Assembly (NCBI RefSeq): GCF_050320075.1
Contig: NZ_CP190018.1
Length of the DNA: 64,000 nt
Source of the DNA: Escherichia coli
Lineage (GTDB): Bacteria > Pseudomonadota > Gammaproteobacteria > Enterobacterales > Enterobacteriaceae
Strand: one strand, 5' to 3'
Below, in pieces: positions 3,290 through 53,107 of the stretch. The notes under the pieces are model-generated. The model made no database searches. It was not told the origin of the DNA and saw nothing but the letters and a program-made list of their open reading frames with translations. Positions within the stretch are counted from its first letter, which is position 1. Each line of letters begins with the position of its first letter. Both the position numbers and the translations under genes were made by a program.

Positions 3290-3500
3290 GCGCAGGGAGC
3301 GCGCAGGGGGCGGCCAATCGCCGCCGCCCCCTGCACCCCCGGGCTCTGGCGAACAAAATCGCCGCTGCGCGGTGCCCTCGACTTATCCCTTACGGCTACC
3401 GGGTCGGGCGCGAGGTAACATCCCTGTAAAACGCGCCCTCAGCCCACATCCATGTGGGCTGCCCCGGCCTTCAGGGAACGCCTCGGCGATTTTGACGCCA
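3290..3500. repeat. GC-rich palindromic intergenic element (possible REP/BIME-like or small MITE-like repeat)
   Basis: Perfect 12-bp stem GCAGGGGGCGGC/GCCGCCCCCTGC (3303-3331, 5-nt loop); perfect 10-bp palindrome CAGCCCACAT/ATGTGGGCTG (3440-3461); imperfect long-range inverted repeat GGCGAACAAAATCGCCG (3348-3364) vs CGGCGATTTTGACGCC (3484-3499); G+C far above the neighbouring intergenic DNA. Confidence 0.45.
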
Positions 3501-27080: not shown

Positions 27081-27355
27081 ATTTTTTATCGGCGCGGTGT
27101 AAGAAAAGAGAACTCTCTCCCGGCCAGCACTGCTCGCTATATAAAAGCATCGCAAGAATAACTTTAGCCAGGGTTTGAGACTATAGCTCGGATTAAAAAA
27201 CGGTATTTAACAAATTTTTATGCGTATTTGCTCTATGTGATAAAGCCAAATCGGCACAAGAGAAGTGAAATAATCTTTAAGAAAAGGTTAAAAACAGCAG
27301 ATAATTTTGCAGCACGCAGTCACTGCGGCAGCGACTGCGTACTCGAAAGGAGTTA

Positions 27356-35842: not shown

Positions 35843-35849
35843 TTCGAGA

Positions 35850-35885
35850 ATGCCTGATCGCACAAAGCAATCAGGCATTTTTTTA
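35850..35885 (+). terminator. Rho-independent terminator after ybjH (abuts the mdfA stop)
   Basis: AATGCCTGAT-N10-ATCAGGCATT hairpin followed by TTTTTTT. Confidence 0.8.
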
Positions 35886-38819: not shown

Positions 38820-38850
38820 TAACCGGATGACGTTTCGCGCCATCCGGTTA
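38820..38850. terminator. Intergenic hairpin between convergent deoR and dacC (candidate bidirectional terminator)
   Basis: TAACCGGATG-N11-CATCCGGTTA perfect inverted repeat; no strong T-run on either side. Confidence 0.4.
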
Positions 38851-42752: not shown

Positions 42753-44078
42753 ATGAGCAAAGTAACTCCCCAGCCGAAAATCGGCTTTGTTTCCCTTGGC
42801 TGTCCGAAAAACCTTGTCGATTCAGAGCGTATTCTCACCGAACTACGCACTGAAGGTTATGACGTGGTACCGAGCTATGACGATGCGGACATGGTGATCG
42901 TCAACACCTGCGGCTTTATTGACAGCGCGGTACAAGAATCACTGGAAGCCATTGGTGAAGCGTTGAATGAAAACGGCAAGGTAATTGTGACCGGTTGTCT
43001 GGGGGCAAAAGAAGATCAGATCCTCGAAGTCCACCCGAAAGTGCTGGAAATCACCGGGCCTCATAGCTATGAGCAGGTTCTGGAGCACGTTCATCACTAC
43101 GTGCCAAAACCGAAACACAACCCATTCCTGAGCCTGGTGCCAGAACAAGGCGTGAAACTGACGCCGCGTCATTATGCCTATCTGAAAATTTCTGAAGGCT
43201 GTAATCACCGCTGCACCTTCTGCATTATTCCGTCTATGCGCGGCGACCTGGTGAGCCGTCCGATTGGCGAAGTGTTAAGTGAAGCGAAACGTCTGGTAGA
43301 TGCGGGCGTTAAAGAGATTCTGGTGATCTCGCAGGATACTTCCGCCTATGGCGTCGATGTTAAACATCGTACTGGCTTCCACAACGGCGAGCCGGTAAAA
43401 ACCAGCATGGTCAGCCTGTGCGAACAGTTATCGAAACTGGGGATCTGGACACGTCTGCACTACGTTTACCCTTATCCGCATGTGGACGACGTCATCCCAC
43501 TGATGGCAGAGGGCAAAATCCTGCCCTATCTGGACATTCCGTTGCAGCACGCCAGCCCGCGCATTCTCAAACTGATGAAACGTCCGGGTTCTGTAGATCG
43601 CCAACTGGCGCGCATCAAACAGTGGCGCAAAATCTGCCCGGAACTGACCCTACGCTCAACCTTTATTGTTGGCTTCCCTGGCGAGACGGAAGAAGATTTC
43701 CAGATGCTACTCGACTTCCTGAAAGAAGCACGTCTGGATCGCGTTGGCTGCTTTAAATACAGCCCGGTTGAAGGTGCAGACGCCAATGCCCTGCCTGACC
43801 AGGTTCCGGAAGAAGTGAAAGAAGAACGCTGGAACCGTTTCATGCAGCTGCAGCAGCAGATTTCCGCCGAGCGCCTGCAAGAGAAAGTGGGCCGTGAAAT
43901 TCTGGTGATTATCGACGAAGTGGACGAAGAAGGCGCGATTGGTCGCAGCATGGCAGATGCACCGGAAATCGACGGCGCGGTTTATCTCAATGGTGAAACC
44001 AACGTTAAGCCGGGTGATATCCTGCGTGTGAAAGTCGAGCACGCCGATGAGTACGATTTGTGGGGTAGCCGGGTTTAA
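42753..44078 (+). CDS. rimO: Ribosomal protein S12 methylthiotransferase RimO (radical SAM, MTTase family)
   Basis: 441-aa ORF; N-terminal MTTase Cys triad (SLGCPKN...C...C), radical-[11 protein letters not shown] motif, C-terminal TRAM domain. Confidence 0.95.
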
Positions 44079-44262
44079 TTAATCTTAAGGCAGATCTAAC
44101 AAGGATATTGTTCTTCGATCTGCCTCTGCTACCCTTCCCGATGTCCTACCCTTACGCACAAAATCCCCTGACGCATAAATCGAGAAAAATGAATCGTACT
44201 CGAGGCAACTCTCACTTTTTCACACCAAATTAAAGTTTTGATCGCAATTACTTGAAATAAGC

Positions 44263-44288
44263 GTAATGGTTACTATAGTAAACATTAC
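44263..44288 (+). promoter_or_regulatory. Near-perfect 26-bp palindrome, candidate operator/promoter of the toxin-antitoxin cassette
   Basis: GTAATGgTTACTATAGTAAaCATTAC (perfect 12-bp core TTACTATAGTAA) centred ~28 bp upstream of the toxin ATG; TATAGT could also be a -10 box. Confidence 0.5.
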
Positions 44289-44303
44289 CACAAGGATGGA
44301 TGT

Positions 44304-44690
44304 ATGGGTGTGTATAAGGCAAGACGATTCAGCCAAAGCACGAAAAAACTTGGTATTCACGATAAAGTTCTCATGGCTGCCGCTGAAGAAGTGATGCAGG
44401 GCATATGGGAGGCTGATTTAGGTAGCGGTGTCATCAAAAAACGTTTACCCCTCCAACAAGGAAAGAGTGGTGGAGCCAGAACAATTATCTTTTTTAAATC
44501 AGCAAATCATGTGTTTTTTTATGATGGTTGGTCCAAGAGTGGTCTAAGCAGTAAAGGAACCAAAGAAATCGAAGATGATGAACTGGCGGCCTACAAAAAA
44601 ATGGCAAATGCATTTCTGGCCTTTAGCAATAAGCAAATAGAGGATTTGATCGAAACTGGCTTTTTGATTGAGGTGAAAAATGAGCGATAA
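44304..44690 (+). CDS. Putative type II toxin, RelE/HigB-like (DUF1044-type)
   Basis: 128-aa ORF with AAGGA RBS; motif GKSGGARTIIFF resembles the KGKSGG(Y/V)R(V/I)IY core of RelE/HigB-family toxins; 11-bp overlap with a downstream HTH gene. Confidence 0.6.
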   Translation: MGVYKARRFSQSTKKLGIHDKVLMAAAEEVMQGIWEADLGSGVIKKRLPLQQGKSGGARTIIFFKSANHVFFYDGWSKSGLSSKGTKEIEDDELAAYKKMANAFLAFSNKQIEDLIETGFLIEVKNER

Positions 44691-45009
44691 ATTACAAATG
44701 ATGCTGGAAGATGCAAAGGAACTGAATGCACTGGGCCTGATGTCTGATAGTGAAGTTGATGCCATTGCCGTCATGGTCAAAGCTCGTGAAGTCAGCGCCC
44801 GTATAGCCAAAGTCAAATCAATGACGGGTGAAGAGATCAAAGCCATCCGCACCCGATACGGCATGTCACAATCCGTGCTGGCACATACAATGGGAATGTC
44901 AAAAGAAAGTGTCTCGAAATGGGAACGAAATGAAATAAAACCGAGCGGCCCGGCACTACGTATTTTGAATACATTGGCAATAAAAGGGCCGGAAGTTTTT
45001 GCAAAGTAA
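44680..45009 (+). CDS. Putative antitoxin, XRE-family HTH protein (YiaG/COG2944-like)
   Basis: 109-aa ORF; C-terminal HTH (IRTRYGMSQSVLAHTMGMSKESVSKWERNEIKPSGPALRIL) resembling YiaG-type regulators; GAGGTG RBS inside the toxin 3' end. Confidence 0.6.
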   Translation: MSDKLQMMLEDAKELNALGLMSDSEVDAIAVMVKAREVSARIAKVKSMTGEEIKAIRTRYGMSQSVLAHTMGMSKESVSKWERNEIKPSGPALRILNTLAIKGPEVFAK

Positions 45010-45038
45010 AATGTTTGCAAATGATTTACCACATTCAT

Positions 45039-45064
45039 TAGTACCCCTTGATTAAGGGGTACTA
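45039..45064. terminator. Hairpin between the TA cassette and the dgcI 3' end
   Basis: TAGTACCCCTT-GATT-AAGGGGTACTA perfect 11-bp stem; no T-run. Confidence 0.35.
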
Positions 45065-45078
45065 ACACTATTCTAATT

Positions 45079-46407
45079 CTACTGCCAGCTAATCTGTGCC
45101 CTGCCGTTTTTCTTACTCTTATACAGTCGCTCATCCGCCAGCATTTTCAAGCGTTCAACGGTAGGACATTCATTTGAATGCGCTACACCGATACTGGTGC
45201 TTAAATTAATGCTTCCCACCTGGAAATGAACAATTTCTTTTAGAATCGATAGCAACTCTTCCAGCGTTCCACCCGTATAAATCACCGCAAATTCGTCACC
45301 GCCGAAGCGGTAGACTTTACCTTTATCTACCGGGATCTGTGATTTAAGGATTTTCACCACTTTCATCAACACTTCATCGCCCAGCAAATGACCGAAAGTG
45401 TCGTTGATGTTTTTGAATTTATCGACGTCAAACAGGCACAAATATCCGCCTTTTTCCGGCAGGGCTTTTAAATCTTCGTCAAAGGATTTTCTGCCCATCG
45501 CTTTGGTCAGGTCATCCAGGAACGCCGAGTTATACAGACTGTAGAGTTTTTTGACATCGGCAGCTGAAAAGAAAAGCCCGCCATCCAGTACGCGTTCAAA
45601 ATGGTTATTAATGATGGCTTCTTTCTCCACAATACCACGATTAATCACTCTGCGTACCAGATAGAGGCAACTGACACCCGATATCACTGCCACCAATGCG
45701 GCAAAGAAAATAATCAATGTACAGACCCGCAAATAAACATCTTTTTTATACGCAAATACGTACAATCCGGTCGGCAAATAGGCGAAGTGCTCCATCGCTT
45801 CCGAAACGGTGAAGATGGCGTTTTTAGCATTAAATTCATCACCGGTCACCGGTTTACCGTTCTTAAACAGAGAGAACATCAGGTTCTCGCTATCCATCGC
45901 CAGCGATTTTGACAGTAAAGAAAAACGCTCCAGACCAAGCAAAAATATCAGACTACGATTATGAGTTACCGGATAGAGGTAATAGACGAAGGTTTTACCG
46001 TCAAAAGAGATAAACCCTGTATTTTTGACATGTCGATACTTCACAATCTGCATAATATCTGCACAATAATTTTTCTCGAACTCCTTTACCTGAATACATT
46101 CGTCACTGGAAATCAGATAAGGACCGACATCGTACAAATAAGAGGGTGAAACCGAGTCGGCGTAAGCTGTGCGCAAGCCAACCAACAGCTGTTCCTCCGT
46201 GGGATTTAGCGTGTTGATAAGATCAATTGCCACGCTACGCCGATATTCAGCAATATTTGCCACCGCAAAAGCAGTATCAATAACGGACTGTTTCAGGCCA
46301 TACACCCGTTCCTTTACCATTTGAGTGTAGATCCCGCAGGCAACTGCTGAAATCATGATAAAAATCAGCAGACTGACTGTAAGTACGAACTTATTGATTC
46401 TGGACAT
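45079..46407 (-). CDS. dgcI: Diguanylate cyclase DgcI (YliF), membrane-anchored GGDEF protein
   Basis: 442-aa ORF; N-terminal TM segment, C-terminal GGDEF domain (RFGGDEF). Confidence 0.92.
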
Positions 46408-51568: not shown

Positions 51569-53107
51569 TTATTGCAAATCCGCGTCTTCAAAGCTGAAAC
51601 CGGTGTCTGGCATGATCCAAAAACCGGTCAGGTTTTTACTGTGTGCCGACACCAGTTTTTCTACCACCAGCGGGATCCACGGCGACTCTTGCCAGATGAT
51701 ATCCTGCGCCGCCTTATATAAACGGGTCTTTTCTGCCGGATCATTAGTTTTCAGTGCCTGAGCCAGGAAGTCATCCACCTGTTTATTGCTGTAAAACGCG
51801 GTATTAAACAGCGTCGGTGGCCAGTTCTGCGAGGCAAACAGCGGCGATAGTGCCCAGTCCGCTTCGCCGGTTGAAGCCGACCAGCCAGTGTAGAACATCC
51901 GCACGCCGCTCTCTTTTTGCCCTTTACCTTCAACTTCTGCCGCCCGCTGTCCGGCATCCATCGCAGTCACCTGGGCTTTAATCCCGACCTGCGCTAACTG
52001 CTGCTGGGTAAATTGCAGCACTTTCTGCGCGGTGCTGTGGTTATGTGACGACCACAGCGTGGTATTGAAACCGTTGGGATATCCCGCCTCTTTCAGTAAT
52101 TCGCGCGCTTTCACTGGATCGTAAGGCCACGGTTTATAACTTTGCGCGTAGGCGATACTCGGCGGTACCACACCAGTAGCTGGCGTTGCATAGCCCGCGA
52201 AGGCCACTTTCACCAGCGCCGGGCGGTTAATGGCGTAATTCAGCGCCTCACGGACCTTCGGGTTATCGAACGGCTTTTGCGTCACGTTCATACTGATATA
52301 ACGCTGCATAATTGACGGACTGGCCATCAACTCGATATTTTTGTTTTTCTCCAGCAGTGCGGCCTGCTCGTAGGGAATGGGGAAAGCAAACTGCGCTTCA
52401 CCGGTTTGCAGCATTGCCGCGCGGGTGTTGTTATCCGCCACCGGACGCCAGGTTATGCTGTCCAGTTTGGGCAATCCTGGCTGCCAGTAACCCGCGAATT
52501 TTTTCACCTTCACAAAATCGGTCTGATTCCAGGTATCCAGTTCATACGGCCCGGTTCCCACCGGATGAAAACCAATCTCCTTGCCATATTTTTCCAGCGC
52601 TGCCGGCGAAATCATCGCGGTCGCCGGATGGGCAAGAATATTAATAAACGCTGAGAACGGCTGTTTGAGGGTAATCTTTACCGTTGTTGGATCGATCGCT
52701 TCCGTTTTGGCAATATTCTTATACAGGTTGTAGCGTTTAAGATGATTCGCCGGATCGCTGGCCCGGTCCAGATTCGCTTTTACCGCCGCTGCGTTGAAAT
52801 CGGTGCCATCCTGGAATTTAATTCCTTCCCGCAATTTCACGGTGTATGTAAGGCCGTCATCGGAAACGGTATAACTCTCCGCCAGCACGTTTTTCAGTTT
52901 CATCTCTTTATCCAGACCAAACAGCCCCTGGTAAAACGATTTCGCTACGGCCTGAGATAACGTGTCATTTGCGTCATACGGATCGAGCGTGGTGAAGTTC
53001 GATCCTACCGCCACCACCACATCTTTGGCAGCGAATGCACAAGATGCCATCAACGCTGTCGCAATGCCCAGCGCCACTAACCCACTACGGTGTACAGCTC
53101 TTGCCAT
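51569..53107 (-). CDS. gsiB: Glutathione-binding periplasmic protein GsiB
   Basis: 512 aa from ATG at 53107 ([26 protein letters not shown] signal peptide); track ORF carries an 89-codon upstream extension. Confidence 0.92.

Follow-up and report, generated by a model that had tools for sequence, protein, structure and literature searches.

A toxin-first gene pair in a strain-variable segment

In a stretch of Escherichia coli DNA of 64 kb, which is referred to here as the window, two short overlapping genes stand on the plus strand between rimO and dgcI, and a palindrome lies immediately upstream of the first of them. The genes and the segment that carries them are the following.

42753-44078, plus strand: rimO
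44084-45079, no strand assigned: strain-variable segment of 996 bp, delimited by comparison with K-12, with the cassette and its own predicted promoter and operator
44304-44690, plus strand: toxin gene, 128 aa, PF06296 (HigB2-type RelE-fold; Pfam E 6.9e-33)
44680-45009, plus strand: antitoxin gene, 109 aa, with a C-terminal XRE helix-turn-helix (HTH_3 E 1.9e-9)
45079-46407, minus strand: dgcI

The open reading frames are those described in the first-pass annotation, a 128-aa toxin and a 109-aa helix-turn-helix protein, and its contention that the cassette is not a gene remnant holds, the pair being an intact toxin-antitoxin operon by its two domain matches and its overlap of 11 nt. A PDB search with the single toxin sequence gave no match and a family profile was required, for which V. 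cholerae HigB-2 was the only PDB family matched (E 3e-4). The AlphaFold model of the toxin (pLDDT 85) had a HigB2 chain, 5jaa_D, as its top structural match in Foldseek. For the antitoxin the family profile matched HigA-2 in the PDB with an E-value of 3e-12, followed by the P22 C2 repressor, C.Kpn2I (3e-7) and MqsA (7e-6). In the antitoxin model (pLDDT 89.5) N-terminal helices at residues 2-17 and 23-43 are followed by a five-helix XRE domain (residues 50-107), which superposes on the C-terminal domain of HigA2 (PDB 5j9i) at 1.1 A over 62 residues, and the N-terminal part is by analogy a putative toxin-binding region. In a review of the RelE/ParE superfamily HigB2 is among the names given to PF06296 toxins, and the gene order is toxin-first (PMC11980606). 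On the strength of the Pfam, PDB-profile and model matches of both proteins, together with this review, the gene pair is thus a type II module of the HigBA2 type with the toxin first.

Where 996 bp stand in the window, K-12 has 42 bp, containing a hairpin, between rimO and dgcI. Homology to K-12 ends 5 bp past the rimO stop codon and resumes within the dgcI stop codon, with the cassette junctions at 44083/44084 and 45079/45080; the dgcI stop codon in which the right junction falls is TAG here and TAA in K-12. No direct repeats flanking the cassette were seen in this comparison. Of 5426 complete E. coli genomes, 1138 (~21%) carry the cassette, O157:H7 strains among them; it is almost always chromosomal, with one copy on a plasmid. 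Relative to the O157:H7 copy the two genes carry 8 synonymous differences and 1 non-synonymous difference, and in this small sample both appear to be intact and under purifying selection. The 80 bp around the palindrome have one and the same sequence in 1119 of the 1135 E. coli copies, but the whole cassette is 98.7–100% identical within the species, so the invariance of the site adds little; likewise, the 12 differences from the O157:H7 copy all lie outside 44129-44323, a stretch in which only about 2 would be expected. A literature search for this E. coli cassette by protein accession and by higBA2/rimO, the latter query being poorly targeted, gave no match.

Two of the database copies are peculiar in themselves. 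The cassette of E. coli BS-01 (NZ_CP172816.1) has many homopolymer runs and no annotated antitoxin, which looks like uncorrected long-read sequencing error and not true divergence. A contig of 1198 bp assigned to a 'Collinsella sp.' MAG (JAIJJM010000872.1) matches the E. coli cassette at 100% identity and takes in the end of dgcI; this is almost certainly E. coli DNA that was mis-binned into the metagenome-assembled genome of an actinobacterium.

Inverted repeats are also found at both edges of the variable segment and elsewhere in the window. At the far end of the cassette, between the convergent antitoxin and dgcI genes, a hairpin at 45038-45065 (TTAGTACCCCTT-GATT-AAGGGGTACTAA) has a perfect 12-bp stem and a 4-nt loop and stands where K-12 has the hairpin CAGGCCGGGCAAA...TTTGTCCGGCCTG. 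The ends of the window hairpin, TAGTAC/GTACTA, resemble the operator half-site; it has no T-run, is not conserved in homologous loci and is probably a terminator or insulator. In the palindrome scan this hairpin, as 45039-45064, was the only 26-bp near-palindrome of the window other than the one upstream of the toxin gene. At the left edge of the segment, 10 bp past the rimO stop codon, the inverted repeat AGGCAGATC...GATCTGCCT at 44088-44125 (15-nt arms, 87% complementary) may be the rimO terminator in cassette-carrying strains. Five gapped inverted repeats at 27314-27340, 20242-20272, 35849-35879, 38820-38850 and 3303-3334, which are GC-rich and have 13-nt arms and loops of 1–8 nt, look like terminators or REP elements.

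A palindrome within the predicted promoter

The features upstream of the toxin gene, all of them read from the DNA sequence, are listed in order of position.

44252-44257, plus strand: -35-like hexamer TTGAAA (sigma-70 consensus match)
44263-44288, no strand assigned: candidate composite operator palindrome, GTAA-TGG-TTAC-TATA-GTAA-ACA-TTAC (present, above chance, and with its tetramers kept in 28 homologous loci)
44263-44273, no strand assigned: O-left, GTAATGGTTAC, a perfect 4-N3-4 inverted repeat of 11 bp (exact match of GTAANNNTTAC)
44274-44279, plus strand: -10-like hexamer TATAGT, within the palindrome core (sigma-70 consensus match)
44278-44288, no strand assigned: O-right, GTAAACATTAC, a perfect 4-N3-4 inverted repeat of 11 bp (exact match of GTAANNNTTAC)
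44292-44296, plus strand: Shine-Dalgarno-like AAGGA, 7 nt 5' of the toxin ATG

The sequence at 44263-44288, GTAATGGTTACTATAGTAAACATTAC, pairs at 12 of 13 positions, the only asymmetric pair being G44269/A44282, and was returned by the repeat finder as two arms of 13 nt (44263-44275 and 44276-44288) with no gap and 92% complementarity. The core, TTACTATAGTAA (44270-44281, 12 bp), is a perfect palindrome. The dyad falls between 44275 and 44276, 28.5 bp upstream of the toxin ATG (44304), and the palindrome ends 16 bp before that codon. The first-pass annotation had claimed a 26-bp palindrome with a single asymmetric pair and a perfect 12-bp core, centred ~28 bp 5' of the toxin ATG and overlapping a -10-like TATAGT; each of these points is borne out, and the hexamer was found to lie within the core and to be part of the best promoter match of the region. 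The window has two ungapped 26-bp palindromes in which no more than one pair is mismatched, at 44263-44288 and 45039-45064, while first-order Markov randomisations give an expectation of 0.07 per 64 kb. When the 225-bp intergenic region was randomised with its own composition, such a palindrome arose in 0.015% (1.5e-4) of the randomisations. The 26-bp palindrome is therefore real and non-random.

With 10 of 12 matches, TTGAAA-16 bp-TATAGT is the best sigma-70-like site in 43900-45300, as judged by consensus match. Transcription is predicted to start at about 44286, ~7 nt past the -10 hexamer from which this position is derived, and the palindrome would then reach from 44263, in the promoter spacer, across the -10 hexamer and past the predicted +1 to 44288. 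O-left fills the spacer and abuts TATAGT, the layout being TTGAAA, TAAGC, GTAATGGTTAC, TATAGT, and O-right shares 2 nt with the end of the -10 hexamer and extends over the predicted transcription start. The centres of the two units are 15 bp apart, and the units are separated by TATA, with which the -10 hexamer begins. Elsewhere in the 64-kb window an exact GTAAnnnTTAC occurs a single time, as GTAATCTTTAC at 52671-52681 within a minus-strand ORF of 601 aa; exact matches of GTAANNNTTAC are expected 0.57 times by chance in the window, and this third match is probably meaningless.

The symmetry might be thought a by-product of the promoter itself, that is, a TATA -10 with chance symmetric flanks and no dedicated repressor. 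The region is indeed AT-rich (39% GC) and TATAGT/TATAAT is the most conserved part of the site, and promoter function alone would lead one to expect the TATA/-10 part to be conserved. This explanation is nevertheless very unlikely. The outer GTAA and TTAC tetramers lie 10–13 bp from the dyad, in the spacer and at about +1, where sigma-70 needs no specific sequence, the chance rate per intergenic region is the low one given above, and the complementarity of the outer tetramers among homologous loci with toxins of 44–74% identity, described below, would be left unexplained.

We also give very little credence to the palindrome acting as a nucleic-acid structure or a recombination site, whether as a hairpin, as a cruciform, as a terminator or an insulator placed after rimO, or as the site of insertion or attachment of the cassette. 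As single-stranded DNA it does fold better than 200 of 200 shuffles (-5.9 kcal/mol, z -3.7), and the cassette is an insertion polymorphism. However, the stem is weak, AT-rich and loopless and has no T-run, no terminator is predicted there, and a separate inverted repeat, at 44088-44125, is found where the rimO terminator would be. A stem would moreover require more complementarity in the N3 spacers than is seen in relatives, and on these grounds a hairpin, terminator or cruciform was rejected. A cassette junction or attachment site was likewise rejected, as both junctions are far from the palindrome, which lies 180 bp inside the variable segment. No Rfam match was found in 44000-45150 at E-values up to 1.

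Conservation of the two units among relatives

A scan of one genome per species gave 47 loci with relatives of the toxin, and in 44 of these a homologous antitoxin lies directly 3' of the toxin. The footprint was derived from 28 enterobacterial loci, whose toxins are 44–74% identical to that of the E. coli window and whose genera include Kluyvera, Siccibacter, Photorhabdus, Xenorhabdus, Proteus, Morganella, Providencia, Pantoea, Enterobacter, Pectobacterium, Pluralibacter and Phytobacter. In these 28 loci GTAA-N3-TTAC-TATA-GTAA-N3-TTAC recurs with its centre 26–37 bp before the toxin start. Scored against GTAAnnnTTACTATAGTAAnnnTTAC, the promoter site reached 14–20 of 20, while the best match elsewhere in each locus of ~3.3 kb reached 11–14. 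Within the palindrome core the homologous loci have TATAGT, TATAAT or TACTAT; the -35 hexamer, on the other hand, is poorly conserved among relatives, which counts against an operator built into the promoter.

Only the mis-binned E. coli copy (L001) and one other locus (L002, with rimO nearby) have rimO or dgcI as neighbours. As the 28 loci thus lie nearly all in other genomic contexts and yet keep the same pattern, the palindrome, by this comparison, moves with the cassette and not with the genomic neighbourhood. Such mobility through many genera and contexts argues against a site for a different regulator whose gene lies outside the cassette, a reading to which we assign a very slim probability. 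In addition, the site changes together with the recognition helix of the antitoxin (see below), and the window holds no convincing further copy of the motif, the single one being that within the 601-aa ORF.

Across the 28 loci the tetramers and the TATA core are columns of high information, and the N3 spacers and flanks columns of low information. Among the 22 distinct two-unit sites, complementarity about the dyad reaches 95% at the central TA, 88% in the inner and 82% in the outer tetramers, but only 36% in the N3 spacers. Symmetric tetramers that are conserved around variable N3 spacers fit sequence-specific protein contacts and not a base-paired stem. Because the N3 spacers are asymmetric in relatives, the near-perfect overall symmetry of the 26 bp in this window is partly accidental. 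The 26-bp palindrome of the first-pass annotation is accordingly present as it was stated, but is better described as two adjacent 11-bp sites.

The individuality of the units is apparent also in loci with variant arrangements. Three of the relatives (L015, L022 and L029) have a single unit only, a perfect 15-bp palindrome, TAGTAAnnnTTACTA, just 5' of the -10. In distant clades (Omnitrophota, Betaproteobacteria, Geomonas and others) CAC/TAC-N3-GTG/GTA units are found in the same geometry, and in five loci (L037, L039, L041, L042 and L044) a perfect unit abuts the -10-like hexamer in the order -35, unit, -10 that is seen for O-left. TTGACA (AAGACA in L042) stands 17–18 bp upstream of the -10-like hexamer in these five loci. 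The distant loci combine a different palindrome at the equivalent promoter position with a different recognition helix, which is an invariant S-V-S-K-W-E-R in the enterobacterial clade and T-V-R/Q-K-W-E in the distant clades. The covariation is suggestive of an operator sequence that changes along with the helix that would read it, and is drawn from essentially two clades.

An operator model and its relation to known systems

Since the footprint is conserved in relatives, the palindrome overlaps the promoter and a toxin-antitoxin operon lies downstream, the earlier proposal of a candidate autoregulatory operator is supported, and all its sequence-level predictions hold. Whichever the stoichiometry of binding, the palindrome is very probably the operator of the cassette itself. 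More specifically, and with rather less assurance, we lean towards a two-dimer, C-box-like autoregulatory operator of a HigBA2-type operon that is built into a sigma-70 promoter.

On such an operator, a dimer of the 109-aa antitoxin, joined via the C-terminal XRE domain, would bind each 11-bp unit, and the two dimers would sit on roughly opposite faces of the helix, a placement suggested by the 15-bp spacing only. With the spacer of the promoter, the -10 and the start site all covered by the pair, RNA polymerase would be excluded. The toxin would be held by the N-terminal part of the antitoxin and would probably ride on the DNA-bound complex and modulate repression, by analogy with HigBA2 (PDB 8a0x). 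Because both units are located within the core promoter, from the spacer to +1, only repression would be expected and no activate-then-repress switch.

The antitoxin might instead occupy the palindrome as one site for one dimer, centred on the TA/TA dyad in the manner of HigA2, with the inner TTAC/GTAA read by the helix-turn-helix and the conserved outer tetramers touched by the N-terminal segment that adjoins the folded domain. HigA2 is the best PDB relative of the antitoxin by both profile and superposition, and a HigA2 dimer protects about the length of the palindrome, so that one dimer with N-terminal tail contacts could explain the whole site, and in the window the whole 26 bp are nearly symmetric around one dyad. 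Even so, we consider this arrangement rather unlikely. The single-unit loci and the distant clades have their dyad in the N3 spacer and not in TATA, and in relatives it is in N3 that the overall symmetry fails, while each 11-bp unit is symmetric in itself (70 of 88 tetramer pairs per unit). Furthermore, the centres of the inner tetramers are 8 bp apart, as compared with 12 bp between the half-site centres of HigA2.

The two-dimer operator provides a concrete model for an uncharacterised toxin-antitoxin cassette of about one fifth of complete E. coli genomes, O157:H7 included, with four tetramers in two units whose positions are given exactly with respect to the -35, the -10 and the start site. 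A rule for the whole family comes with it, namely that a 4-N3-4 unit of 11 bp directly adjoins the -10 hexamer. If two dimers do bind, HigA2-type antitoxins and the controller proteins of restriction-modification systems would have one operator geometry in common, and the cassette would be a useful comparison for threshold-setting by small XRE repressors in addiction modules. That enterobacterial HigBA2-type antitoxins use a C-box-type dual operator, with two XRE dimers bound cooperatively on opposite faces in an arrangement described to date for restriction-modification controller proteins, is a tentative proposal whose chances we put slightly below even. If true, a dual operator would imply a switch-like autoregulation, unlike the single-site, tail-assisted mode of V. 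cholerae HigA2, and would point to a shared regulatory design or a shared ancestry of the two kinds of addiction module. Otherwise, the palindrome would be of an ordinary kind, the sort of regulatory element that a type II toxin-antitoxin operon is expected to have.

The HigBA2 module of V. cholerae was compared through its HigA2/HigB2 structures (PDB 5j9i, 5jaa, 8a0w and 8a0x). HigA2 represses its operon from a single 7-N5-7 repeat, TGTACGC-N5-GCGTACA, which begins past the -35, extends across the -10 and lies in a protected stretch of 24 bp. Neither the helix-turn-helix dimer nor the disordered N-terminal region is dispensable for repression, and residues 24–32 of this region insert into the major groove and are themselves essential to it (PMC11006873). 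The cassette resembles higBA2 in having the toxin first, a PF06296 toxin, an antitoxin with a C-terminal XRE dimer domain and an inverted repeat that reaches from after the -35 over the -10 for ~24–26 bp. It differs in that two GTAA-N3-TTAC units with centres 15 bp apart are present and the single 7-N5-7 repeat is absent. The base-reading residues R68/E71/N72/R77 of HigA2 align with E76/S79/K80/E85 here; all four differ, and a different operator sequence is therefore expected. Identity to the V. cholerae pair is low, 22–28% for the antitoxin and 10–14% for the toxin.

A second likeness is to MqsRA, for which the MqsA structures PDB 3gn5 and 3o9x were used. MqsA binds AACCT-N3-AGGTT, and the mqsRA promoter has two such palindromes about 32 bp apart (PMC4894380). 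Both systems are toxin-first type II modules in which a C-terminal XRE domain goes with a short N3-spaced palindrome, two of which are found in the promoter, but the spacing of the palindromes is 15 bp in the cassette. The C-terminal domain of the antitoxin gives sub-cut-off matches to TIGR03830 (E 1.8e-12) and to PF15731 (E 5e-4), at profile positions 51–125 only. Membership of the MqsA family was rejected, as the 109-aa antitoxin has no cysteine and lacks a zinc domain such as MqsA has, with its CxxC motifs, at the N-terminus, the scores fall below the cut-offs and the toxin belongs to PF06296 and not to the MqsR family.

A third likeness, one of geometry, is to the C-boxes of restriction-modification systems, represented here by C.PvuII, C.AhdI and C.Esp1396I. 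C-boxes have the form GACTnnnAGTC-TGTA-GACTnnnAGTC, 26 bp in all with centres 15 bp apart (PMC2647307), and they are bound cooperatively by two dimers on opposite faces (PMC2647307; PMC2504287). The tetramers of the cassette are GTAA/TTAC and not GACT/AGTC, and its spacer is TATA and not TGTA or CGTG. Unlike C-protein loci, the cassette has no restriction-modification genes, its neighbours being rimO, the toxin gene and dgcI. C proteins furthermore operate an activate-then-repress switch, whereas repression only would be expected of the cassette, and its antitoxin has a putative toxin-binding N-terminal extension. The antitoxin is like a C protein in its XRE domain only. Within that domain the likeness extends to the proteins: C-boxes are bound by small XRE helix-turn-helix dimers, and the helix-turn-helix of the cassette antitoxin resembles that of C.Kpn2I, with a modelled rmsd of 1.2 A over 52 residues at 35% identity. 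The geometry of the sites is identical, with two 4-N3-4 repeats, a conserved 4-bp spacer, a total of 26 bp and centres 15 bp apart in both.
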